Shown: piece after piece, positions 26,977-51,210 of the stretch
How positions within the stretch are numbered: the first letter of the stretch is position 1
Layout: each line of letters begins with the position of its first letter
Source: Alphaproteobacteria bacterium
GTDB lineage: Bacteria; Pseudomonadota; Alphaproteobacteria; CAAGCB01; CAG-977
Direction of reading: 5' to 3'
Assembly: GCA_900768845.1 (NCBI GenBank)
Contig: CAAGEK010000064.1
Location: forward strand, 4,682-68,681
Length of the DNA: 64,000 bases
The notes under the pieces: model-generated
Database searches by the model: none
What the model saw: the letters and a program-made list of their open reading frames with translations, nothing else
What the model was told of the DNA's origin: nothing
Translations under genes and position numbers: made by a program

Positions 26977-29900
26977 CTATTCACCGCGCTGAAGGGAATC
27001 GGTCAGCTCTTTTTCCTTCGCTTTTTTGACGGCGGGCACGTTTGTTTTTTGCAACGGCGGCGGCAGTTCTTCGGATTTGAACAAAACGGTTTTGGCCGAT
27101 GAAGAAACGGACGGAGAAGGTTGTGAAGGCGTTTGTGTGCGGGCGTCTTTTTTGCTTAAATCTTCATCCGAATTTGCGATTTTTCCCAACAATTCCCTGA
27201 CCGCTCCGGGGGCAAGCGCGGAAAAGGCGTTTACGGAAATATGCGGAGAGGGCAGCTTTCCCTTTACCGTGTATGTCGGCGCAATCAAACCGCCGCCTTT
27301 TTCTCCGGCAAACAGCTTTCCGATAAGGGGGATTTTGCCCAAAAAGCTGTTGAGGGTGTAAAACGGCACCAACGATCCGCGCATATTGAAATATCCGCTG
27401 TCCCGATAATATTTCCCGCTCAACGTAATGCCCAGCGACGATCCTGCAACGACGCCGTCTTTGATCGCTACGGCGGCGTCGGTGATGGAATAGGGGATTT
27501 CCGCACTGTCGAAAGCCAATCCTTCGCCTTTGAACATATCGACAATGCCCGTGAGGGAGGTCAGCATTAAAATGCGGGACAGGACGGGCATTTCAACCAT
27601 TCTGAATTCGGAAACCTTGAGCGTTCCGAATGAAATTTGCAGTTTCGGATCGTATTTGCCTTCGGCTTGCAATTTTCCGCCGCGGATTGACGAAATGTAA
27701 TCCAACGCCGCCAAAGATCCTCCGGCGTCTTCGGAAGCCAGAGAATAAACATATTCCGTTCCGTCGCCGTTCGGGGAAAGCGAAAAATGCAAAGGGATTT
27801 TGTTTTGACCGACCAATCCGACGGCTTTGATTTTTTCCCATGCCGATTCGTTGCGTTTGGCGAAAAGGGCGTTGTTTTCCGTGTATCCTTTCGAGCTGAG
27901 CCATACTTTGTCGAGGGCGGCGTTGATCAGCAAGGATTTTTCAGGATGCGCCCGTTCGGACTTTTCCCTTTTCGCCTCTTTCTTTTCCTTTGCTTCGGAA
28001 GAATCTCCCGCGATCAGACCGCTGATGTCCAAAGATGCGCCGCTCAAGTCGAACTTCAGTGAATTATCGCCGAAACGGATTCGGGCTTTGGCGTCAGTCC
28101 GCCCCGTTTTTACGGAATCGAGCAACAATTCCTTTAAGTCGCCCTTTTCGTCAAAAGTCAATTTCCCGCGGGCGGCGTTTCCCGCCGCGTCGCTGAGGGA
28201 AAAATCGGGAACGTCCGTCAGAACGTCGTCTTTCAACAATAAGGTGACGGATCCTTTGCCGTGAGTGTTCAAGGGCTTTTTCCATCCGACGGGGCGCAGA
28301 AAGATTTCTGCACCTTTGAGATCGAAATCCGTCTTTACCGTCGCCGATCCCGACCGTTTTCCCTTTAAACGCAATGCCGCCTTGACATTTCCGGAAACGG
28401 ACGGAGGCACCAGAAGCTTTGAACCGAAATCGAAATGAGCCCGCGTCGCATCGTTCAACGAGGTGTTAAAGGAAATGTCCGTTTTTTCCTGTTTGTTCCT
28501 GTCAAAACTCATTTTGACCGAAAAGTCCGCGGGGCTGGTGAAAAACATTCCCGTTCCGGTCAAACCGACGTCTTTTTCCCGTACTTTCAACGTCATGGAA
28601 GCCTGTTGCAATCCGTAATCCAACACAATGTCCTTTAAAGAGGCATTTTTGATTTCCGCATCCGCGTTGACTTTGACCTGTTCGTCCGATGTGAAAGCGT
28701 CTCCGATCGGAAAGTCCAAAGTCAGCGTGCCTTTTACCAGTCCTTTCGTCTTTTCGGGACGAACGCCGATTTCCCGTGTCAGATCCAACGGCGGCTGATC
28801 CAAAATCGTCAAAGCGTCTTTCAGACTGCCTTCCAAATCAAGGACGACTTTTCCGTCGGAAAACTCTTTTTCCAAATTGTAAAACGAAACCAGCCCTTTG
28901 GTGACGGAAACACCGTAAGTCGCTCCTTGATTGATATGAATGTCAACGGTTTGGCGGGTCAGATCCAATGTTCCCGCCACGTTTTCGACGGCGGGCATTC
29001 CCTCCATATAGGTTACGTTCGTCCCGCTGATATTGACGGTACCGGCGACACGGTCGCAGTCTATGCCGCTTTCGTCTTTCAATCCGATGAAATGCAGGGC
29101 GAAGGTTCCTTCATGAATGGTGCCGCCGTGCATATTGTCCCTGACCCAGTCGTGAATTTCGGGTTCGATGACCGCAGGCCAGTAAGAAGGCAGTTTGTCG
29201 ACGGGGACGTCCAAAACGGTTGCGTTCATGTCGGCGGAAATGCTTTCCCATCCGTGCGTATCGAAAGCCTTTCCCAATCCGCGAACGGAAATGTTCCCGA
29301 AGGCGCGCCCCGTGTTCATTTGCAATTCAAAGCCGGTTAAGTCGAATTTGTCGCCTTTGTCGTACCAAGCCCCTTTGAGAGAAAAATTTTTCAAATCGAA
29401 ATCGGCAATGACGGGATCGGGCAACAATACGCGTCCCGCGCCGCCTTTGATACGGAACTCGATGCGTTGAATGGCGTCGCGCCAGTCGTCCGGACGTTTC
29501 GATTTTAAAACGGGGGCGATGTCCAGACGGGTTGCCGTTTCAATATCGACGGGGGTGGAAAGTTGTTGCAGGACGGGATATTTTTTTGCGACGGACAAGC
29601 CCGATACATTGATGTTTTTGACGCCGACGGTCACGATCATGTCGGATTTGTTTTTGCCCCATTCCGCAAGGATGTTGACGTTCAGCGGTTTTTTTCGGGT
29701 TGTCAGCTTTAACCGTCCCGTCAAAGTGTTGCGGGAGCGTTTCTCCGCGTATGTCAGATCGGCTTTCGGAATTTCCCATTCGACATTGTGATATTCGTCC
29801 GTAACGCGGATTCTGGCGTCAAGCAATGAAAAACGGGAAATGTAAACGTCTTTTTCCAAAAACGCGATGACGTCCCACACGGGAAAAGGCGTTTCCGCTT

Positions 29901-30351
29901 CCGTTTCCGCGCTTTTCCCTTCCGGTTTCGGCAAGGCGTCCGGCGTGGAGCTGATACTTCCGTCTTTTGCAATGTACAAGCGGATGAAGGGGCGGTGAAC
30001 GGCTAACGTCCGCAAAGCGATCGTTCCGCGCAGCAACGCCGCAAAACTGAAAGAGAGCGACATTTCCGGCACGGAGGAAATCAAAACGCCGTCTTTGTTT
30101 CTCAGGCTGAAATCCTTGACCACCAGTTTGACGGGGCGGGCGGCTTCCCCCCACGCAAGGACGGCGGATCCGATTTTCAACTTCGCTTCGGATTCGGGAA
30201 TGGCGAAAGCGTGAACGATGTACGGGATGATTTCGTTGGCTTCGATGGGGCCTCTGTGCAAACGCCATAAAAACGCGCCGCCGATTGTCATCAGACAGAC
30301 GACGCACAATTGCAAGAATACGAAAAAGAGTTTGAAAAGCTTGCGCAACAC
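26977..30351 (-). CDS. large AsmA-like/YhdP-like (DUF3971-type) envelope protein, 1124 aa
   Basis: It has an N-terminal transmembrane anchor, a very long beta-rich periplasmic body and a C-terminal AsmA_2-like region; its size and composition match the YhdP/TamB-like lipid-transport family. Confidence 0.55.
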   Translation of the reverse strand: MLRKLFKLFFVFLQLCVVCLMTIGGAFLWRLHRGPIEANEIIPYIVHAFAIPESEAKLKIGSAVLAWGEAARPVKLVVKDFSLRNKDGVLISSVPEMSLSFSFAALLRGTIALRTLAVHRPFIRLYIAKDGSISSTPDALPKPEGKSAETEAETPFPVWDVIAFLEKDVYISRFSLLDARIRVTDEYHNVEWEIPKADLTYAEKRSRNTLTGRLKLTTRKKPLNVNILAEWGKNKSDMIVTVGVKNINVSGLSVAKKYPVLQQLSTPVDIETATRLDIAPVLKSKRPDDWRDAIQRIEFRIKGGAGRVLLPDPVIADFDLKNFSLKGAWYDKGDKFDLTGFELQMNTGRAFGNISVRGLGKAFDTHGWESISADMNATVLDVPVDKLPSYWPAVIEPEIHDWVRDNMHGGTIHEGTFALHFIGLKDESGIDCDRVAGTVNISGTNVTYMEGMPAVENVAGTLDLTRQTVDIHINQGATYGVSVTKGLVSFYNLEKEFSDGKVVLDLEGSLKDALTILDQPPLDLTREIGVRPEKTKGLVKGTLTLDFPIGDAFTSDEQVKVNADAEIKNASLKDIVLDYGLQQASMTLKVREKDVGLTGTGMFFTSPADFSVKMSFDRNKQEKTDISFNTSLNDATRAHFDFGSKLLVPPSVSGNVKAALRLKGKRSGSATVKTDFDLKGAEIFLRPVGWKKPLNTHGKGSVTLLLKDDVLTDVPDFSLSDAAGNAARGKLTFDEKGDLKELLLDSVKTGRTDAKARIRFGDNSLKFDLSGASLDISGLIAGDSSEAKEKKEAKREKSERAHPEKSLLINAALDKVWLSSKGYTENNALFAKRNESAWEKIKAVGLVGQNKIPLHFSLSPNGDGTEYVYSLASEDAGGSLAALDYISSIRGGKLQAEGKYDPKLQISFGTLKVSEFRMVEMPVLSRILMLTSLTGIVDMFKGEGLAFDSAEIPYSITDAAVAIKDGVVAGSSLGITLSGKYYRDSGYFNMRGSLVPFYTLNSFLGKIPLIGKLFAGEKGGGLIAPTYTVKGKLPSPHISVNAFSALAPGAVRELLGKIANSDEDLSKKDARTQTPSQPSPSVSSSAKTVLFKSEELPPPLQKTNVPAVKKAKEKELTDSLQRGE

Positions 30352-40014: not shown

Positions 40015-43000
40015 TTGGCGGAGGGGGTCTGCGTGAAAAAGACGCTTTTAATCGTGTTCGTTGTTTTGGTTTTGTTGGGCGGCGGCGTTTATTTCGTACT
40101 GCCGACAACGATCAATTGGGAAAAATACACGCAGGAAGTATCGGCCGCCGTTAAAAACGCGACGGGACGTTCGTTGAGCATTCAGGGAACGCCCGTGTTT
40201 ACGATGCGTCCCGTTCCCGTGTTGAAGCTGGGCAAGCTTACGATGGCCAACGCGACGGGGGCTTCCATGCCCAATATGATGACGGCGGAAGGCGCGGAAA
40301 TCCAGTTTGATGCGGGGGCTTTGTTCCGGCGTCAAACCAAAATCAAAAAGGTGACGTTGCATTCGCCGAAATTCTTTGTCGAATATCTGCAGGACGGCAC
40401 GCCGAACTGGCAGCCGGCTTTTCTGTTGCGCGCCCCGTCGGGAAAGGGCGTCGGGTTTGAAAGCCTGATGGTCAAAAACGGTTCCGCCCTTGTCCGTCCC
40501 GACAAATATTCCGATGCTCAAAACTGGAATGACATCAATGCGGAGCTTTTCGCCGACAGCCTTCAAGGGCCGTTCTTTTTGGAAGGAAATCTGGCGGCGT
40601 TGTCCACGACGTTCGGTTTTTCCATGAAAATCGAAAAAATCGAAGCGGGGCGTTCTCCCGAATTCGACCTGCGTCTGACGAATGCTCCCGCCGAGGCGTC
40701 TTTTTCCTTTACCGGCGGTTACGGGGCGAAGGACGGCGACAAGGATTCTCTGGAAGGCAACGTCAATTTTGAAATCCGTCAAACGGCTAGGGCGGCGCAG
40801 TTCCTGTCCCCGGAGTCCAAATCCCTTCCGGCCGGTTTGTTCCAACCGCTGGTCGGGAATATGATCGTAAAAAACAATTCCGCGAACAGGACGACGGAAT
40901 TCAGCGAAGTGCTGTTCAAATACGGAACGTCGTCGGCGACGGGCAAATTCACCGTCCGCCGTTTAAGTCCCGAGGAAAAGGCCGCGCTGGAGGACGGCAG
41001 GTATCGTCCCGCGCAAGCGGCCGGTTCGCCGGCGAAGGACGCAGACGGGGAAGACGATATCATGCTGATTGATCCCGACCATCCCGAAACACGCGTTTCG
41101 TTGGCGGGGTTGCCTGAAAAGCTGAACATTCATGAAAATTCCCTGCCGAAAATCATCAAAGGCGATTTCCTGTTTTCCAAATTCGCCGCGGACGTATGGG
41201 TGAAAAATTTTCCGGCTCTGGTTGACGCGCTGTCTTCTTCAAACGGAGCGGGAGCTTCGGGTGACGAGTACGATTTGGACGTCGCTTTCGACACGGTCGA
41301 TTTGAATCGGGATTTGGTGCGTCAGGCGAAAGTGACGCTTACCGACGATCCCAAAGGCATTAAATTCGCCGGTTTGCGTGCGTCTTTGCCGGGGAACGGA
41401 AGCATTGAAGGCGACATCGTCCTGCAAACGGATTCAAAACAGCCCCTGTTGACGGGGAATGTGAAAATTTCCGCCGACAATACCGCCGCATTGTTGCGTT
41501 GGGCGGGCGTCGACGTGCCTGAAGAGATTCCTCAAAACCTGTTGCGTTCGATGGAAATGTCGACCGGTTTTAAATCGGCGAAAACGGGGATCATCCTTGA
41601 AAACACGGATCTTGCGCTGGATCGCATCAAAGCGAAAGGCGGCCTGAGCGTGCGATGGGAAGGGCGAAAAGCGGCGGCCGTCGTCGCCGATGTCAATGAA
41701 TTGGACTTTGACGTTTATTTCCCGAAATCCCGCGAACAGGCGGTGAAAACGCAAGAGGAATTTTTTTCGACGGCACTGACCCCTTCGCAAAAAGTCCGGC
41801 GTTTGTTCGATACTTTGGCGTTTTTAAACGATCGGGACGTTTCCGTGAAACTGAAAACCGGATCCCTTTCGTGGGGCGGTGTAAAAACGGGGGCGTTGAG
41901 CGCGGACGTTTCCGCCGTGCGCGGTTTTATGCAAATCAGGGATTTGTCGATAAAGGATTTTGCAACGGCGTCTTGGGAAGTCAAAGGCGGCGTTTCCGGT
42001 TTCGGCGGAGTTCCTTCATTTAAAAATCTGGCGGTGAATTTCGACACCAAGCGGCTGGGAGATTTCCTGAAAACGGCAGGGTTTGCGATGCCCAAAGAGC
42101 TGATGCGTTCGGATGCGTTGAACCTGGCCGCGGAAACGGACGGCACTTTGGATTTGTTCGATTTCGGCGCGGACGTCAGGATGGGCGGTTTTCGGGCGGT
42201 CGGAACGGGAAGTTTCCAAAACGCTCCCGATGATTCGGATTTTTCGGTGCAATTGAGTGTTTCTCACGAAAATACGCGGAACTTTATGCGCTTGTTTACG
42301 GACAAGTACCGTCCGGCGTTGTCAAACCCCGGAATGTTCAAAGGATCGGCTCACGTTTTGAAGAACGATAAGGTCGTCCAGTTGTCGGATATGACGGTCA
42401 GCATCGGAGAAAATACGTTCAAAGGCGCGCTGAAATACGATTGGTCGAAACAGCTTCCCGCTTTGTCCGTGCAATTGAATGCACAGGAATTGGAACCGTT
42501 TGCATTTTTGCCGCGTTTGAATTTTTTGGATCCGGCCGCCGTCAGTATTTCCGGTGATAAAAAGGACGCAAAGGACGATGCGGAATCAAACGGCAAGGGC
42601 TTTTTCACTCCTTTGGCAAAAACGTATGCGTTTCCGAAAGCTCCTTTGGATTTGTCGTTTTTGGGGAATTACAATGCCGACATACAGGTGAGATCCGATA
42701 AGCTGAAATTCGACAAACTGGTGTTGAATAACGTCGATTTGGCGTTGTTGTTGCAACCGTCCTTGTTCAAGCTGGACGTCCGCTATGCCGAATGGGAAGG
42801 GGCGAGCGTCGTATCCATCATCGATATAAAAACGCCGCAAGGACAGGTTCCGGCCGCACAGTGGCGGTTGCGTCTGGCCAATTTGTCCGGTCGCGAAAAC
42901 GTGTTCGGGCGTGACGGGAAGGATTTGTCGTTCGGTTCGATGACGATGGATATGAATTTGACCTCGCAAGGCAAAACGGCGCAGGATATGCTTGACGCCT

Positions 43001-44382
43001 TGTCGGGAAAAGGAAAGGTTTCCTTTGAATCGGCCGTGTTGGAAGGCGTCGATCTGTTGGCGATGGAAAACGCGTTGTCGGGCAGGGGACAGGCCGCCCG
43101 CGACCTTTTGTTGCAATCGGCGGCGACGGGGCGCACCTCTTTGGAAAAGCTTGAATTGCAATACAATGTGGCGAACGGTTCTTTCACGCTTTCCCCGTTG
43201 CATTTCGGCTATTCGGGAAAAACGTCGGCCAGAAACCACTTGATATACGATTACGGCAAACGGACGCTGAAAGGCGAACTGAGTACGGATTTGTCTTCTT
43301 TGTCGACGCCGCCCGTTTATACGGGTAAGTTGCCTTTGTTCAGGATGCAATTCGAGGGGACGACCGACGCAATGACCGTTTCCGACAATGCGCAGGAAAT
43401 CGCCCTTTTGATGCAAACCGTCGAAAACGAAGCGGCGGAACGCATAAAAGCCGAAAACGAAATGGCACGGCAAAGGGAAGAGGAAAACCGTCTTTTCCTG
43501 AAACGCCAGCTGGATCGCGAATTCGGAATGCTGGAAAATGATTTGCAAAACCGGCTGGGAGATTTGCAAAAGAAAATAGATCTTTTAACGCCGTATGAAG
43601 ACAAAGTTTATGCCGTTCAGAAACACGTCATTCTTTTAAGAAAACATTTGCAGACTCTGAAAAAGTCGGAGGAGGAAATCGCAACGGCGAAGAACGACGG
43701 GAACACGACGCGTGAAAGTCTGAAGCTGTTAAAAGAAAAACTGGAAAAAGCGTGGACGCCGTTGCAACAGGAGATTGATACGACCTTTACGACGGCTCGT
43801 CTGACCGGAATCAGGGGAAGTATTGACGACCTGATCATTCGGGCGAACGATTTGTTGAAACAGGCGGCAAAAACCAAAGCCGCGCATCCCGATCTCAAAG
43901 CGGTTTCGAGCGGTGTGGACGATATTGTCGCCGGAATAAGGGATTTGAACGCGCAAAAGGAAAAGGCTTTGAAATCCGACGACACTTCCGCGCTGACTTT
44001 GATGTTGGCGGACGCCGAAGCGATCTTCGCCAAATCGTCGGCGGCTTTTGAAATGCTCGGCGACGCGGCGAAGAAACGGGAAGCGGAGATTAAGGCCGCC
44101 GAAGAAGCCAAAAAAGCCGCCGAAGAAGCCAAAAGAAAAGCCGAAGAGGCGGCGAAGAAGGCCGCCGAGGAAGCCGAGAAAGCGGCAGAAGCCGAACGGC
44201 GCAGGACAATCGTCCGCAAGGACGGGGTCACCCGCTCGGACGATCGTCCCGCGGCGGGAACGTCTTCCGGTTCCGGAAGCGGTTCGGGCTTTAAGCTGAT
44301 TCTTGAGGAAAAGGAAACAGCTCCGTCTTCCTCTTCAACGTCGTCGTCCGGCGGCACGGGCGGGATTATCCGCCGCCGCTGA
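40015..44382 (+). CDS. giant AsmA-family protein with C-terminal coiled-coil and low-complexity tail (1455 aa)
   Basis: It has an N-terminal transmembrane segment and an AsmA domain (YFVLPTTINWEKYTQEVSAAVKNATGRSLSIQGTPVFTMRPVPVLKLGKLTMANA). About 350 C-terminal residues are predicted coiled-coil, then an A/E/K-rich repeat region (AAEEAKKAAEEAKRKAEEAAKKAAEEAEKAAEAERRR) and a Ser/Gly tail. The start is TTG at 40015 or, more likely, GTG at 40033 after a GGAGGGGG ribosome-binding site. Confidence 0.65.
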   Translation: MAEGVCVKKTLLIVFVVLVLLGGGVYFVLPTTINWEKYTQEVSAAVKNATGRSLSIQGTPVFTMRPVPVLKLGKLTMANATGASMPNMMTAEGAEIQFDAGALFRRQTKIKKVTLHSPKFFVEYLQDGTPNWQPAFLLRAPSGKGVGFESLMVKNGSALVRPDKYSDAQNWNDINAELFADSLQGPFFLEGNLAALSTTFGFSMKIEKIEAGRSPEFDLRLTNAPAEASFSFTGGYGAKDGDKDSLEGNVNFEIRQTARAAQFLSPESKSLPAGLFQPLVGNMIVKNNSANRTTEFSEVLFKYGTSSATGKFTVRRLSPEEKAALEDGRYRPAQAAGSPAKDADGEDDIMLIDPDHPETRVSLAGLPEKLNIHENSLPKIIKGDFLFSKFAADVWVKNFPALVDALSSSNGAGASGDEYDLDVAFDTVDLNRDLVRQAKVTLTDDPKGIKFAGLRASLPGNGSIEGDIVLQTDSKQPLLTGNVKISADNTAALLRWAGVDVPEEIPQNLLRSMEMSTGFKSAKTGIILENTDLALDRIKAKGGLSVRWEGRKAAAVVADVNELDFDVYFPKSREQAVKTQEEFFSTALTPSQKVRRLFDTLAFLNDRDVSVKLKTGSLSWGGVKTGALSADVSAVRGFMQIRDLSIKDFATASWEVKGGVSGFGGVPSFKNLAVNFDTKRLGDFLKTAGFAMPKELMRSDALNLAAETDGTLDLFDFGADVRMGGFRAVGTGSFQNAPDDSDFSVQLSVSHENTRNFMRLFTDKYRPALSNPGMFKGSAHVLKNDKVVQLSDMTVSIGENTFKGALKYDWSKQLPALSVQLNAQELEPFAFLPRLNFLDPAAVSISGDKKDAKDDAESNGKGFFTPLAKTYAFPKAPLDLSFLGNYNADIQVRSDKLKFDKLVLNNVDLALLLQPSLFKLDVRYAEWEGASVVSIIDIKTPQGQVPAAQWRLRLANLSGRENVFGRDGKDLSFGSMTMDMNLTSQGKTAQDMLDALSGKGKVSFESAVLEGVDLLAMENALSGRGQAARDLLLQSAATGRTSLEKLELQYNVANGSFTLSPLHFGYSGKTSARNHLIYDYGKRTLKGELSTDLSSLSTPPVYTGKLPLFRMQFEGTTDAMTVSDNAQEIALLMQTVENEAAERIKAENEMARQREEENRLFLKRQLDREFGMLENDLQNRLGDLQKKIDLLTPYEDKVYAVQKHVILLRKHLQTLKKSEEEIATAKNDGNTTRESLKLLKEKLEKAWTPLQQEIDTTFTTARLTGIRGSIDDLIIRANDLLKQAAKTKAAHPDLKAVSSGVDDIVAGIRDLNAQKEKALKSDDTSALTLMLADAEAIFAKSSAAFEMLGDAAKKREAEIKAAEEAKKAAEEAKRKAEEAAKKAAEEAEKAAEAERRRTIVRKDGVTRSDDRPAAGTSSGSGSGSGFKLILEEKETAPSSSSTSSSGGTGGIIRRR

Positions 44383-46194: not shown

Positions 46195-46797
46195 ATGAAA
46201 AAATCGTTTAAAGGACGGGTGTTTGCCTGCATAACGTTTTCCATGTTGTTCGGATGTGTATCCGCAAACGCCGTCAAGGAAAAAGAGGAGGGCTCTTTGG
46301 AAATTCCTTCCTCCGTTCAACCGGAGCCGGCGGCGGAGATTCCCGTTGAATCTCCGAAAGCTCCCGAACCCGAAGGCATATCGGATGACGATTTGAAACG
46401 GGCGATACAAAACGCCGTGAGGGATTTGATGCGTTCCGGCGTCTTGGACAATCCGAACGGCGACCGTTATGTTGTCACCGTGTCGCGCATCGTGAATTTA
46501 AGCAAGGCTGAAATCGACATTCCTCTGGCCGTCAAAAGGTTGAGTTCCAATCTGGCGACCGGTAAAAAAGTCAAGGTTACTTACGGAAATCCGGCGGCGG
46601 GCAACGGTGCGAAAAGCTCCGTTCATCCGGAAATCAACGTTTCGGCGCGTATCACCCAAAGAACCGCTCATGTACGCAGCGGCAAACGGATCGAGTATTA
46701 TTTGCACCTGAATTTGACGGAAATCAAAAGCGGCATCGGGTTATGGGAAAACTCGACGCCGGTTTTGAAACGCCGTAAGAAATCTATTGGAAAGTGA
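46195..46797 (+). CDS. putative lipoprotein (LpoB/COG3417-like), 200 aa
   Basis: A signal peptide with lipobox LFGC, a Pro/Glu-rich linker and a small globular C-terminal domain are present. The family assignment is tentative. Confidence 0.35.
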   Translation: MKKSFKGRVFACITFSMLFGCVSANAVKEKEEGSLEIPSSVQPEPAAEIPVESPKAPEPEGISDDDLKRAIQNAVRDLMRSGVLDNPNGDRYVVTVSRIVNLSKAEIDIPLAVKRLSSNLATGKKVKVTYGNPAAGNGAKSSVHPEINVSARITQRTAHVRSGKRIEYYLHLNLTEIKSGIGLWENSTPVLKRRKKSIGK

Positions 46798-47368
46798 AAG
46801 TGACGTTAGTGGCATTTTTTCCACACTGTGCGGCCGCTTCCGAGGAAGCGAAAGGCAGATGTTGCGCTATGTCATATTCCGTTCCCTGAGGCGGATATGT
46901 GCGGGCGGCATGGTTTCCGATCTTGATGGATAACAGGTTTTGCACGGGAATATCCATTGTCGCGACGGCGACACAGGCCGCTCCGGGAAGATTGGTGTAA
47001 GTAAAGCTGTATGTCGCCGGATTATTGCCGTTCGCGGCCGAAACCGAGTACGTCAATTCGCCTCCGAACGGATTGGAAGAGGTTTTGTTCGTGGAATTAT
47101 AATACTCGTCGTCGATAAACTTCAAGTTATGCAACTGTTCCGCCGACAAATTGGGATAGTCGCGGAAAGAAGCAAAATAGCCCGTCAGGCTTTTCATCAA
47201 ACCTTGAGCATGCGTAACGATTTTGGATGTTTTGAAACGTGTCATTATTCCTTGATAACCGACCAACATTCCGATAGCCATCATCCCGATCACCGCCAGC
47301 ACGCCCATAATCTCCACCATTGACGCGCCGCGCTGTCCCTCGGTTTTGTGATTTTTGGAAACAAACAT
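46784..47368 (-). CDS. type IV pilin/pseudopilin-like protein (prepilin-type N-terminal methylation domain)
   Basis: The prepilin leader ends in G|ASMVEIMGVLAVIGMMAIGML, with Glu at +5 and a hydrophobic helix. A C-terminal Cys pair is present (GAAC...AAAQCG). The ATG at 47368 follows a GAAAGGAAGG ribosome-binding site. Confidence 0.6.
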   Translation of the reverse strand: MFVSKNHKTEGQRGASMVEIMGVLAVIGMMAIGMLVGYQGIMTRFKTSKIVTHAQGLMKSLTGYFASFRDYPNLSAEQLHNLKFIDDEYYNSTNKTSSNPFGGELTYSVSAANGNNPATYSFTYTNLPGAACVAVATMDIPVQNLLSIKIGNHAARTYPPQGTEYDIAQHLPFASSEAAAQCGKNATNVTFTFQ

Positions 47369-47382
47369 GACATTCCTTCCTT

Positions 47383-47610
47383 TCAAATCAAAATATTGAC
47401 GTATGTCCCGCGTGGAGCATTCAGATTGTAGCGTTTTCCGCTTATTTCAACAAACGTGCCTTCATCGTTCAAAAAAGGGACTTCCCTGCGATAAGAGGGG
47501 GATACGGTTTGTTTTTCCGTGTTTTTTGCAAAATCCGCCCGTTTCGACGATGCGGCGACACGTCCGGCGTCAAGATTGATACCCCTGTTTGTAAAAGAAA
47601 CGTTGCTCAC
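47383..47610 (-). CDS. small hypothetical ORF upstream of the pilin gene (75 aa, GTG start)
   Basis: This is an ORF only, with an AAGGGG ribosome-binding site; it has no recognisable family and may be non-coding leader sequence. Confidence 0.2.
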   Translation of the reverse strand: MSNVSFTNRGINLDAGRVAASSKRADFAKNTEKQTVSPSYRREVPFLNDEGTFVEISGKRYNLNAPRGTYVNILI

Positions 47611-47705
47611 GTCCGCCCCTTATTGTGTTTGATAAACCTTGTTTTAACCTAATTAGTATAAAAGCAAAAATATAAAAAGTCCATCAGCAAGGAGCCATAT
47701 TTGCC

Positions 47706-48329
47706 GTGAATGAAGCGTTGTTTTTGTCAAAAGCCGCGATTACCCGAATGTGCCACGATTTGGCCGGCGTTGTCGGAGCCGTGACGAACGGGTTGGAATT
47801 GCTGGGTGAAGAAGAGCGAATCGATCCGGAAACATTTGATTTGGTAAAGGGAAACGCATCCGTTTTGTTTGCGCGCACGGTTTTTTTTCGGGCGGCTTTC
47901 GGCAATGAAGGCCCTTTGACCGGAGCCGAAGCCGCCGAACGGATTTTAAAGGGGTATTTGAGTTCTTTGGAAAACAGGGCGGCGCGTTATTCATGCGAAT
48001 GGCACGTCGATTCGGGATTGCCGTTGTTTTCTTTCCGTTTGATTTTGCTGGCGGCGCAACTCGTGGCGGAACGTATGATCAAAGGCGGGGTTTTGAGCGT
48101 TACGGCAAAAGCCGGTGAAAACAAAATTTCCGTTTGCGGCGAAGGCGAAAGAATTTTAGCATTGTCCGGCGGCGATTCGTTCCTGTCCTATACCGAAGGC
48201 GATTATACGTCCAAAGACGTCGCCCGCGTTTTTTTGGCGGAGCATTTGCGCGGTTTGGGATGGACGGCCGTGTGTGACACGCCGCGGGAAGGGGTTTTCG
48301 GTTTGATTTTGACAGGGTCGGAAGTATGA
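47706..48329 (+). CDS. chpT: ChpT-family histidine phosphotransferase
   Basis: ITRMCHDLAGVVGAVTNGLELL and FFRAAFGNEG align with the phospho-His region of Caulobacter ChpT (LAARLCHDFISP...GLDLL; FTRVAFGASA). A GTG start follows AAGGAG. Confidence 0.7.
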   Translation: MNEALFLSKAAITRMCHDLAGVVGAVTNGLELLGEEERIDPETFDLVKGNASVLFARTVFFRAAFGNEGPLTGAEAAERILKGYLSSLENRAARYSCEWHVDSGLPLFSFRLILLAAQLVAERMIKGGVLSVTAKAGENKISVCGEGERILALSGGDSFLSYTEGDYTSKDVARVFLAEHLRGLGWTAVCDTPREGVFGLILTGSEV

Positions 48330-48351
48330 CGGCGCGAAAAGGGGGCTCCGA

Positions 48352-51210
48352 ATGCCTGATTTAATGAAAGAATTTTTGGACAGGGCGGATTTTGAGCTGA
48401 CGTCATTGGACGACCGTCTGCCGCGTTTGGAACGCAATCCGTCCGATCAGGAAATATGGGATGCGTTGGAAAGCTTTTTGGCATTTGTCCGCGACTGCTC
48501 GCCGTTTTTGGAAATGGAACGCTGTTCCGCTTTGTCCGAAGCGGCCTTGGACGAATTGTGCGCGTACAGGGAAGGACGCTTGGGACTGAAAATCCTGCCC
48601 GACGTTTTAATGAAGTTCCGGCGGCTGAAAAAGATTATTTCTTCCGTTGCCAAACTGGGGCGGGAACCGCGTGAAAGCGATGACGATTTGTTGCCCGTTC
48701 CCGTCGAAGCGGAACCGGTGCCCGACCAAATGGCGGAAAAAAGCGGGGCTTGGGTGGATTCCCTGCGCGAAGAGGCTGAAGCCTTGAACTCGAAGGAGCG
48801 CGAAATCGCGGCTCAGGAAAGCGCGTTGGACACTCGGGAGGAAGAGCTGGTCGTTTGGGCGCAAAGTCTGTCCGAACAGGACGCCTTTTTAAAAGCCAGA
48901 GAAAACAAGCTGTTTGAAAACGAACAAAAATACCACGTTTCTGAAAGTACCCTGCAAGAGGAGTACGCTCGAATTCAGGAATATGAAAAGCATTTGGACG
49001 AACGGCGCGACGAACAGGAACATCAGGATAAGATTTTGAAACTTCGCGCCGCCGAAGCGGAACAGGCTTTCGCCGATTTGGAGGAACGGTCGCGGGAAAA
49101 TCAAAAAGGGTTGGCCGTCCTGAGGGAAAGGGAGCAGTTGTTGGCCAAGCGTGAAAACGAATTGCACGCTTTGGAAGAGGAACTGGTACAGTCCCAGATG
49201 GAATTGCACCGCGACCGCGATGATTTGAAAGCCGTCGAAGAAGAATACGAAATGCAACATTCTTTGTTGAAAGACAAGGAAAGGTTGTTAAAGGAGCAGA
49301 ATGTCGAGCTGTCGAAAATGAAAGAGGATCTGGCGGCGAAGCTGGCTTCGGACGAGCATATCGAAACAGAGTTGCGTCTGGTGATCCAGCAACAGAAGCA
49401 AAAGATCGTCGAAGTCGAAGAAAAGCTCAGCCTGTCGGAATTCAAACTTCAAAACACGGAAAAGGAGTTGTTCCAAACTCAAAAGGAAAATCTGGCGTTA
49501 AAACACGAAAGCGACGATTTGAAACTGACGGCGACGGATACGGGACGCGAGTTGGAGCGCATCAGATCCGAACAGCGCGATTTCATAGAACAGCACCGGT
49601 TGTTAAACGATGAAAACGTTGAATTGCAACAAGAGTTGGCGCGCAGAAAGGCCGCCATTGACAGAGAGAGGGAAGAGCTGAAACGCCGCACGGCGACATT
49701 CGACCGGATGAAAGAAGAACTCGAAGCCGTCGGCTGGCCGTTTAACGCCGACGGATTGCGCGACGGGCTGGCCGATTTGGCGAAATCTCAGGCGGCCATT
49801 CAGAATTTGTTGAAAAATTCTTATAACGTTCAAAAACTTGCGTCGTTCAAGAATATAAACGAAGCGTTTTTGGTCTTTAAAAAACACGTTGCCGATTTGC
49901 GTTCGCGTTCTTTGCGCGGCATATACGATTTTGTGCGTCAGACGGCTGAACAAAAATCGGAAAAATACCGCCGTGCGTATGAAATCGATTGGGAGCTTCC
50001 CGAAAGCTTTCCCGTCGCCGATCTTCAGGCGGATTCGGCTTTGCGCGGCATTTTGTCGCATTTGATCGACAATGCGTTCAAGTATGCCGTTTTGGCGGCG
50101 GGGTTGCCTTTGCTCCGGTTGTTTTTCTCCGTCCGTACCGACGGGGCGTTTTTGAATTTCTATTTTGCCGACAACGGATCCAAATTTTCCGTGAATGCTT
50201 TGCGCGAAGAAATCGTCAATACGGGTGTTTTGGGAAAGGCCGAAGTTTACGGCCTGTCCGATGACGAAGCGTTACAATATTTGTTTCATCCGCGCATATT
50301 GCACGCCCGTTCGGACAAACGCGGACTGTTGGCGGCTCATGCGGCTTTGGCCGTTTGCGGCGGCCGGATCAAAGCCGTGGCCGACAACGGTTTCGGCATA
50401 TATTTTTCAATGCCGGTGTCGTATTTGTTCGGTCGGGTTTTGGGATTTAAAATCGGCCGGTGCAAATTGTTGCTGCCTTTGGGGGCGGTGATTAAAACTC
50501 TGGCCGTTTCGTCCGACAGCGATTCGTTTTGCGAGCAAAACGGGGCGGCGTTCTTTTCTTGGAACGGCGGCTTGATTCCCGTTTTGGATTTTCCTCCCGC
50601 ATCGTCGGATAAATCGGAATACGTCATCATTTTGCAAGCCGGAGCCTTTTATGTCGCTCTGAAAGCCGATCAGGTTTGGGACACGCAGGAAATCGCTTCA
50701 ATGCATCCGGAAAAATCGGACAAGGAAACGCCGTTTTTGTTGCCGTGCGTTACATTGGAAAGCGGAGCCGAATATTCGTTTTTGGATGTGGCCCGGCTGT
50801 TGCACGCCCAAGCACCTCTTCTGACGGAATATGCGGAGGACAAAGAACCGGAGCCCGCCCCGTCCAAGTTGCGTTCTTATTTGATTTTCAAATCCGCGCC
50901 TCATACGTTCGGGGCGGTGCGTATCGGCGATGTGAAATCCATCGAGGATTTTTCCGGACCGAAAAAGGATTTGGAAACGAATATGCATATTTTTGAAACG
51001 GGAGGAAAGAGTTTGCCTTTGCGGGACGCCGCACCTCAGGGACGGTTCGCTTTTTCAAAAACAGTGCTGGTTTTGGAAGGGGCGGCTTTGGCCATTCAGG
51101 AAGTGACGGATATTTTGGACATTCCCGTGTCGGAAGATGACGAAAACGTCGAGTTCGTCGTTTACAAGGGGGCGCAAGTCCCCGTTTTCCCCCAAGAGGA
51201 TAAGCCGTAA
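48352..51210 (+). CDS. CheA-like multidomain protein (Hpt-like N-domain without His, about 450-aa coiled-coil, degenerate HATPase_c, two CheW-like domains)
   Basis: The N-terminal roughly 100 aa are Hpt-like helical but contain no histidine. A long heptad-rich coiled coil follows. Residues around 600 onward carry LRGILSHLIDNAFKYA (N-box-like) and FADNGSKF (G1-like), but G2 is poor. The C-terminus has two CheW-like modules (GRVLGFKIGRCKLLLPLGAVIKTL; YLIFKSAPHTFGAVRIGDVKSIEDF). Confidence 0.5.
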   Translation: MPDLMKEFLDRADFELTSLDDRLPRLERNPSDQEIWDALESFLAFVRDCSPFLEMERCSALSEAALDELCAYREGRLGLKILPDVLMKFRRLKKIISSVAKLGREPRESDDDLLPVPVEAEPVPDQMAEKSGAWVDSLREEAEALNSKEREIAAQESALDTREEELVVWAQSLSEQDAFLKARENKLFENEQKYHVSESTLQEEYARIQEYEKHLDERRDEQEHQDKILKLRAAEAEQAFADLEERSRENQKGLAVLREREQLLAKRENELHALEEELVQSQMELHRDRDDLKAVEEEYEMQHSLLKDKERLLKEQNVELSKMKEDLAAKLASDEHIETELRLVIQQQKQKIVEVEEKLSLSEFKLQNTEKELFQTQKENLALKHESDDLKLTATDTGRELERIRSEQRDFIEQHRLLNDENVELQQELARRKAAIDREREELKRRTATFDRMKEELEAVGWPFNADGLRDGLADLAKSQAAIQNLLKNSYNVQKLASFKNINEAFLVFKKHVADLRSRSLRGIYDFVRQTAEQKSEKYRRAYEIDWELPESFPVADLQADSALRGILSHLIDNAFKYAVLAAGLPLLRLFFSVRTDGAFLNFYFADNGSKFSVNALREEIVNTGVLGKAEVYGLSDDEALQYLFHPRILHARSDKRGLLAAHAALAVCGGRIKAVADNGFGIYFSMPVSYLFGRVLGFKIGRCKLLLPLGAVIKTLAVSSDSDSFCEQNGAAFFSWNGGLIPVLDFPPASSDKSEYVIILQAGAFYVALKADQVWDTQEIASMHPEKSDKETPFLLPCVTLESGAEYSFLDVARLLHAQAPLLTEYAEDKEPEPAPSKLRSYLIFKSAPHTFGAVRIGDVKSIEDFSGPKKDLETNMHIFETGGKSLPLRDAAPQGRFAFSKTVLVLEGAALAIQEVTDILDIPVSEDDENVEFVVYKGAQVPVFPQEDKP

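Follow-up and report, generated by a model that had tools for sequence, protein, structure and literature searches.

What could a CheA homologue do once it has lost its phospho-acceptor histidine, and why would it be encoded immediately behind a histidine phosphotransferase? This question is raised by two adjacent open reading frames (ORFs), ORF A and ORF B, in a stretch of 64,000 nucleotides (nt) of alphaproteobacterial DNA (contig CAAGEK010000064.1 of assembly GCA_900768845.1, lineage CAG-977), the whole of which is hereafter called the window. A first reading of its sequence (the original prediction) had described ORF A as chpT and ORF B as a degenerate CheA-like protein, and had suggested that a non-catalytic CheA scaffold partnered with a stand-alone phosphotransferase would be an unusual arrangement. 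According to our analysis, this interpretation is partly supported: ORF B very probably descends from an alphaproteobacterial CheA that is normally encoded 3' of chpT, and is very probably non-catalytic, while its present role as a dimeric, CheA-derived scaffold or adaptor working with ChpT is the reading that we favour, with a probability of about 0.5.

A CheA homologue directly downstream of a ChpT-type gene

Both ORFs lie where the original prediction had placed them, ORF B directly following chpT (Table 1). ORF A scores 31.7 bits on the Pfam profile HPTransfase (cut-off 22.9) and matches the ChpT crystal structures 4qpj, 4fmt and 4fpp in a PDB search (E 6e-8 to 9e-7). Its His17 sits in the motif R-M-C-H-D-L, which aligns with the ChpT histidine motif R-x-C-H-D, and R14, H17 and D18 are invariant among the 16 homologues aligned; FFRAAFG and (K/R)GG motifs are also present, and the GTG start and its ribosome-binding site (RBS) are kept across loci. 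While ORF A has the HPTransfase domain, the phospho-His motif and the overall length in common with the ChpT proteins of Caulobacter and Brucella (4fmt, 4qpj), it is very divergent, reaching 47 bits against the NCBIfam ChpT equivalog cut-offs of 225 and 240, and for that reason we file it as ChpT-type and not as a proven ChpT orthologue. The usual phosphate donor of ChpT is the receiver domain of the hybrid kinase CckA; the shuttling of phosphate from CckA to CtrA or CpdR is a property of ChpT that is putative for ORF A.

Table 1. Features of the chpT–cheA-like locus (positions in the window; aa, amino acids).
Feature	Position	Strand	Description
Type IVb-like prepilin gene	46784..47386	-	200 aa; Pfam PilS 40.2 bits, Bundlin 28.7 bits
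Small ORF	47383..47610	-	75 aa; between pilin gene and chpT; overlaps pilin start by 4 nt
Conserved intergenic element	47628..47685	-	58 bp; consensus across 19 loci; promoter scan
ORF A	47706..48329	+	ChpT-type histidine phosphotransferase; 207 aa; GTG start
ORF B	48352..51210	+	Degenerate CheA homologue; 952 aa; starts 22 nt past the ORF A stop; RBS AAAGGGGG in the gap
P1/Hpt-like four-helix bundle	48352..48657	+	aa 1-102; BLASTP, profile, AlphaFold2 and Foldseek
Linker motif L-(G/K)-R-E-P-R-E-x-D-x-D-L-L-P	48655..48696	+	aa 102-115; near-invariant; disordered segment after it
Coiled coil	48754..49731	+	aa ~135-460, ~325 residues; at the place of the P1-P3 linker/P2
P3-like dimerisation helices	49738..49899	+	aa ~463-516; profile A2 alignment
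P4-like (HATPase_c-like) domain	49900..50421	+	aa ~517-690; nucleotide-binding motifs partly degenerate
P5 / first CheW-like domain	50428..50811	+	aa ~693-820; Pfam CheW; aligned to P5 of E. coli CheA structure 8c5v
Second CheW-like domain, C-terminal	50872..51189	+	aa ~841-946; AlphaFold2 and Foldseek

Taken as a single sequence, ORF B reveals little of its origin: Pfam recovers one CheW domain only (aa 696–819, 33.8 bits), neither HATPase_c nor H-kinase_dim is reached, and phmmer against PDB gives E-values of 0.005 (P3–P5) and 0.4 (P1). The domains had to be recovered with family profiles. The profile of residues 455–952 matches CheA P3-P4-P5 structures at E = 4e-21, in an alignment that runs from P3 through the end of P5; this relation of the C-terminal region to CheA P4/P5 had been set beforehand as a test of the original prediction. 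From its position 21 on, profile A2 aligns to P3 of the T. maritima CheA structures 3ja6/1b3q, while three relatives (P0006, P0008 and P0062) score 26–28 bits on the Pfam HATPase_c profile. By these profiles, ORF B is a true CheA homologue, in which a P1/Hpt-like bundle, a coiled coil, P3, a P4-like domain, P5 and a second CheW-like domain follow one another. The order had been foreseen as Hpt-like, coiled coil, kinase-like and two CheW-like domains, and is borne out by the profiles, the AlphaFold2 (AF2) models and the Foldseek searches.

At the N-terminus, BLASTP gives an ungapped alignment between the P1-like domain and the P1 of a canonical CheA (27% identity, E = 5e-8), and the N-terminal profile (A3) scores 40–58 bits on the P1 domains of canonical alphaproteobacterial CheAs. 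The AF2 model of this domain is a four-helix bundle (helices 2–28, 33–53, 56–73 and 79–102; predicted local distance difference test, pLDDT, ~88), and its best PDB matches in Foldseek are the CheA P1 structures 1tqg, 3kyi and 2ld6, including the P1 of R. sphaeroides CheA3. The linker motif LKREPRESDDDLLP is almost invariant, being kept in nearly all of 20 species, and the canonical relatives P0064 and P0068 hold a weaker version of it, G(S/H)EPxGxDxDLIARL; from residue 112 on, the pLDDT of the model is below 50. At the other end, sequence-only searches did not identify the last 119 residues and structure prediction was required: AF2 gives an all-beta fold (pLDDT 79), for which the top 17 PDB matches in Foldseek are all CheW or CheA P5 (E 2e-6 to 2e-3, the next match being at 0.6). 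This region aligns with the second CheW-like domain of canonical CheA, and the predicted fold supports its identity as such.

Between P1 and P3, residues 125–462 contain no proline, two glycines and about 50% charged residues, and a weak match to an SMC coiled coil covers aa 140–457. The coil is shorter than first thought, the roughly 450 residues originally proposed shrinking to about 325 within this proline-free stretch. Across species, its length falls into two classes, ~276–280 and 335–346 aa, and if continuous, the coil of ORF B would span about 48 nm. One member (L020, 10001-12061) is a much shorter protein of 690 aa, with a coil of ~113 aa. In P0064, the closest canonical CheA, a bacterial globin (Pfam Bac_globin) stands between P1 and P3, where the coil stands in the gut clade. 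With a long coiled coil and a CheA-type kinase module in one polypeptide, ORF B recalls proteins of the methyl-accepting coiled-coil (MAC) type, but its coil lies between P1 and P3 and it has no CheB/CheR partners; moreover, the Pfam search gave no MCPsignal match at E <= 0.1, and identity with a MAC protein was rejected on that ground.

Catalytic features lost and retained

Among the features expected of a CheA histidine kinase, ORF B has the P3 dimerisation and the P5 CheW-like domains. Its P1 has the Hpt fold and homology but not the phospho-acceptor histidine (H-x-x-K-G motif): the acceptor position is occupied by Ala44, opposite H45 of the canonical protein in the BLASTP alignment, and there is no histidine at all in residues 1–194, exactly as had been noticed from the sequence. 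Whether orthologues retain this histidine could be checked in 20 species, among which position 44 is hypervariable (K/G/L/D/E/H/C/R/N/S/A), a single family member (L013, 10001-12604) having His at the aligned position. The lysine found three residues past the phospho-His in canonical CheA (K48 in the L023 protein) is kept as Arg47 in ORF B, and as Lys or Arg across species.

The P4-like domain does not have the intact N, G1, F and G2 boxes of HATPase_c either. In ORF B, the N box reads L-I-D-N-A-F-K-Y (with Asn574), G1 reads D607-N-G-S-K, the F box L-F-H-P and G2 K-R-G-L-L-A-A, while GGRI is retained. The N-box Asn and the G1 Asp, which are the main Mg-ATP contacts, are invariant in the 20 species, and the F-box "LFxP" and the "GGxI" are conserved in all of them. 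In contrast, the "GxGxG" lid of G2 has shrunk to "RGL" in these species (the lid region being shorter in the P0007–P0009 subgroup). Each of the 20 species loci tabulated lacks the second G1 glycine, although a full DNGxG ("DNGTG/DNGAG") is seen in the distant members P0062 and P0063; as to the first G1 glycine, three species have another residue there (two read DNS, one DNV). The claim that the G boxes are degenerate thus stands for G2 and the second G1 glycine, but not for the N-box Asn and the G1 Asp. Finally, the receiver (REC) domain, present in all chpT-linked canonical CheAs tested, is missing from ORF B.

This mixture of lost and invariant residues bears on a split kinase, in which ORF B would bind ATP via its P4-like domain and phosphorylate His17 of ChpT in trans, ChpT replacing the dead P1 and thereby gaining a CheA-type input. 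The model would be R. sphaeroides CheA4, which phosphorylates the P1 of CheA3; both are incomplete CheAs that function only with a partner, and the P1 and P5 of CheA3 flank a long non-canonical region. CheA3 lacks P3 and P4 and retains its phospho-His, and its insert is described as a phosphatase, whereas ORF B has no such histidine, possesses P3 and a P4-like domain, and carries a coiled coil as its insert; the likeness lies in the incompleteness and in the CheA3 P1 structure (3kyi) being among the best matches to the N-terminus of ORF B. Four conserved elements of P4 (N-box Asn, G1 Asp, "LFxP" and "GGxI"), the full G1 of the most distant members, the invariance of His17 and the loss of both the P1 His and REC, which leaves ChpT as the only nearby acceptor, would all agree with such a kinase. 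Yet the G2 box is lost in every member, with its lid further shortened in one subgroup, the first G1 glycine has become Ser or Val in three species, and the P4 of CheA recognises a P1 four-helix bundle and not a DHp-type helix pair as in ChpT. We know of no kinase of this kind, and consider the possibility unlikely.

Distribution, selection and ancestry of the pair

Scanning 1.84 billion representative proteins exhaustively with HMMER returned 13 family proteins at E <= 1e-30, followed by a sharp fall to canonical CheAs at ~120–85 bits. The family is small and isolated, and its genome records are those of uncultured gut, rumen and faecal Alphaproteobacteria, including "Acetobacter sp. CAG:977", metagenome-assembled genomes (MAGs) of the UMGS, RUG and UBA series and MAGs from horse faeces. 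A word-indexed protein search with the whole of ORF B was saturated by coiled-coil words and gave 9 clusters only; repeated with the C-terminal profile, it added one further member, along with unrelated CheA classes. The best "canonical" match of this search (P0011) comes from an F6-like motB-cheV-cheY-cheZ-cheA cluster and was set aside as uninformative.

At least 20 species, with identities as low as 28–31%, carry an intact full-length ORF, and all the homologues found are full length. The ratio of nonsynonymous to synonymous substitution rates (dN/dS) ranges from 0.02 to 0.26 in the P1-like, coil, P3-P4-like and P5 regions, across five species or strain pairs. For these two reasons, ORF B is not a pseudogene. 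A decaying, functionless cheA remnant might have been suspected, the His, the G2 box, the REC and the che genes nearby all being gone, but full-length conservation in so many species, purifying selection on every domain tested and the invariance of LKREPRESDDDLLP make it extremely improbable, and the selection analysis led us to reject it.

The linkage to chpT is just as constant, and holds in every related locus with enough sequence, as the original prediction required: a ChpT-type gene lies directly 5' of the CheA-like gene in 19/19 genome loci and in 12/12 of the gut-type metagenome loci whose sequence extends far enough downstream. The gap between the chpT stop and the start of the ORF B counterpart is 3–22 nt in 19 of 20 loci, with the RBS inside the gap, an operon-like linkage. 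Moreover, a module of four genes (pilin, small ORF, chpT and cheA-like) is intact in two loci, L016 and L021, that have lost the flanking synteny; in L016, all flanking genes differ, with PfkB, metallo-beta-lactamase and methyltransferase genes on one side and HAD, LOG and AAA_14 genes on the other.

No cheW, cheY, cheB, cheR or methyl-accepting chemotaxis protein (MCP) gene is found next to ORF B in any clade locus, a statement that applies to the locus neighbourhoods (no whole-genome search was made). This absence has to be weighed against the idea that ORF B is a residual array component, which would insert into chemoreceptor arrays via its P5 and CheW-like domains and tune an active CheA encoded elsewhere. 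P3, P5 and the second CheW-like domain are indeed conserved under purifying selection, and mixed arrays of paralogous Che proteins are known in Azospirillum (PMC6759762). Besides the missing partners at the locus, however, no chemotaxis, flagellar or receptor genes were seen in the 64-kb window, and Rs-D84, a gut alphaproteobacterial order to which the clade may or may not belong, is reported to lack flagella (PMC12306168). Altogether, we hold a role in arrays to be distinctly unlikely.

Where, then, does the pair come from? In a Sphingomonadales MAG (L023, 243-5314), chpT comes first in a cluster chpT-cheA-cheW-cheY-cheB-cheR, in which CheA is canonical and the linked ChpT scores 200 bits on the ChpT equivalog; a second metagenome contig (L024) also carries chpT and then a canonical cheA. 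A metagenome scan with a ChpT alignment yielded 66 environmental loci, ~39 of which have at least 1.2 kb of downstream sequence, and in ~22 of these ~39 (among metagenome loci L056–L109) a cheA lies within 40–580 nt of chpT. All the ~22 linked CheAs have intact FRLVHTIKG, HMVRNSADHG, DDGRG and GRGVGMD motifs, and the five chpT-linked canonical CheAs that were tested share one architecture: Hpt - dimerisation - HATPase - CheW x2 - REC. The pairing of chpT with cheA, regarded at first as unusual, is on this genomic evidence ancestral and common, and therefore only the degeneration of CheA is new: by the same comparison, the CheA of the gut clade is the one in which the His, the G2 box and the REC are gone and a coil was gained. 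Because chpT very often lies immediately 5' of a hybrid CheA in free-living Alphaproteobacteria, and because ChpT normally takes its phosphate from the receiver of CckA, a relay from CheA-REC to ChpT is suggested.

An architecture with two CheW-like domains is recognised among CheAs, and the CheA.V/VI types have been linked to F5 chemotaxis systems by Vass, Bourret and Foster (bioRxiv 10.1101/2022.05.07.491037). The F5 class of our canonical relatives is one that we infer from their architecture only. With the CheA.V/VI type (two CheW-like domains and a C-terminal receiver), ORF B shares the order P1 - P3 - P4 - P5 - second CheW-like, the position directly 3' of chpT and an "EP..D.DL" motif past P1, and this is the subgroup on which its P1-like domain scores highest. 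It differs by the absence of the phospho-His, the G2 box, the REC and any adjacent cheW/Y/B/R, as well as by its coil, which measures 280–345 aa in the clade against a P1–P3 linker of ~120 aa in the CheA.V/VI type. Our literature searches found no description of an ORF B-type protein or of a chpT–cheA linkage, the sole hint being the gene numbers of Sphingomonas sp. WG, where chpT is Gene3285 and cheR Gene3280 (PMC8921679), a numbering that fits the order of a chpT–cheA cluster.

The pilin genes and a candidate role for ORF B

Upstream of ORF A, on the other strand, the type IV pilin gene noticed in the original prediction was recovered, 320 nt from start to start, with a 75-aa ORF in between that had escaped it. 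The prepilin has a cleavage-type motif G|ASMVE, with Glu at +5, and its orthologue in L016 carries an N_methyl motif. Between the window and a near-identical strain (L025), the pilin is 74% identical while its neighbour genes are 97–99.6% identical, and identity goes down to 24–50% across the clade, which looks like the fast, probably diversifying, evolution of a surface protein. Judged from its sequence, the small ORF has its translation coupled to that of the pilin gene. It can be detected in every locus reaching upstream, whereas the fast-evolving pilin is found by tblastn in most of them, and its C-terminus, FVE(I/V)DGKKYFLNAPRGTY(V/L)NI(L/I)V, is invariant. No Pfam or PDB family was found for it; its PDB matches to clostridial toxin repeats are a summed short repeated motif, in which no single stretch is significant, and this identity was rejected.

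The intergenic element between the small ORF and chpT is conserved across 19 species whose proteins share only 30–50% identity. On the minus strand, it contains a sigma-70-like TGGACT-17 nt-TATACT (47683..47655), in most loci with an extended -10, and then a conserved leader, TAATTAGGTTAAAACAAGGTTTATCA; the leader or operator contains TTAAC. Most likely, the element is a promoter driving the small ORF and the pilin gene, while its use as a chpT promoter was rejected, the sigma-70 fit being on the minus strand only.

Taken as a unit, the CheA-like protein, ChpT, the small ORF and the type IVb-like pilin might form a pilus-linked regulator or landmark, controlling the expression of the pilin or marking the site of pilus assembly, in a loosely Pil-Chp-like manner. 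The constancy of the four-gene arrangement in all clade loci, including the two with lost flanking synteny, and that of the promoter-like element across 19 loci would speak for such a unit, as would the long coiled coil, which is typical of polar landmark proteins. Against this, pilus assembly genes are absent from the 64-kb window and from the loci examined, no full CtrA box (TTAA-N7-TTAA) occurs in the window (1.3 being expected by chance), and the canonical pair of L023 has no adjacent pilin gene, so that we find a dedicated link to pili improbable.

The remainder of the window is mostly housekeeping, with a ribosomal protein operon, glnA/glnB/glnE, nucleoside salvage genes and three AsmA/YhdP-type proteins (17306-19705, 26977-30351 and 40015-44382), of which the one of 1455 aa has a long coiled-coil C-terminal tail, Lys/Glu/Ala-rich and Ser/Gly-rich. 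A 432-aa DUF6782 gene (7074-8372, plus strand) stands between adk and rpsM, inside the ribosomal protein/secY operon. At the end of the window (62000-64000), the guanine-cytosine content is 0.31, against ~0.51 elsewhere, and the ORFs encode type I restriction-modification subunits (Methylase_S, N6_Mtase); this part is probably a horizontally acquired island.

Coming back to ORF B, the scaffold or adaptor that we favour can be pictured as follows. Compared with an ancestor of the arrangement Hpt - dimerisation - HATPase - CheW - CheW - REC, the protein of the gut and rumen clade has lost the P1 phospho-His, the G2 lid, the second G1 glycine, the C-terminal receiver and the cheW-cheY-cheB-cheR neighbours at the locus, and has exchanged its P1–P3 linker for a coiled coil of 280–345 residues. 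None of its modules for protein-protein interaction is gone: the Hpt-like bundle, the helices of P3, the fold of P4 and both CheW-like domains are all retained. Presumably co-transcribed with chpT and dimeric through P3, such a protein may dock ChpT, or the receiver-domain partners of ChpT, on its His-less Hpt-like bundle and/or on its P4-P5 core, the CheW-like domains offering further docking surfaces and the coiled coil serving as a fixed-distance spacer or as an anchor of the complex. ORF B would then position or modulate the ChpT relay rather than supply it with phosphate. A link to the pilin genes may be added to this picture. A precedent for such a role exists in DivL, a pseudokinase derived from a class I histidine kinase, which regulates the CckA-ChpT-CtrA pathway. 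Like ORF B as pictured here, DivL is kinase-derived, no longer has its phospho-acceptor and works through protein-protein contact in a pathway to which ChpT belongs, but it is related to class I (DHp-CA) kinases and has Tyr where the His would be, whereas ORF B is related to CheA (class II) and bears CheW-like domains and a coiled coil, and there is no homology between the two past the HATPase fold.

Three points weigh against this scaffold. Given the invariance of the N-box Asn and the G1 Asp in the 20 species, nucleotide binding or even residual kinase activity is conceivable; ORF B could still be an ordinary array component; and because the adjacency to chpT was inherited from the ancestor, it is by itself no proof of a present partnership. 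A bolder version of the same idea, which we consider rather unlikely, is that a chpT-linked CheA has been turned into a ~45-nm coiled-coil pseudokinase that tethers or gates the ChpT phosphorelay, possibly at the cell pole or where a type IVb pilus is sited, the Hpt without its His being a non-transferring receiver dock, in gut Alphaproteobacteria that perhaps have given up flagellar chemotaxis. In this version, it would be the first CheA-derived pseudokinase in a phosphorelay of the cell-cycle or development type, and the ancestral hybrid CheA-REC would be implied to pass its phosphate to ChpT, wiring chemosensory arrays to CtrA.

We are aware of no earlier description of a conserved kinase-dead CheA that has a long coiled coil. 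If true, our reading would make ORF B a clear natural example of a chemotaxis kinase stripped of catalysis with its docking modules kept, in gut and rumen Alphaproteobacteria that are abundant but uncultured and have their signalling still unexplored. Possibly weightier is what the canonical pairs imply: more than half of the sampled environmental ChpT genes lie directly upstream of a hybrid CheA-REC, which suggests a relay from chemosensory arrays via ChpT to CtrA-type regulators.

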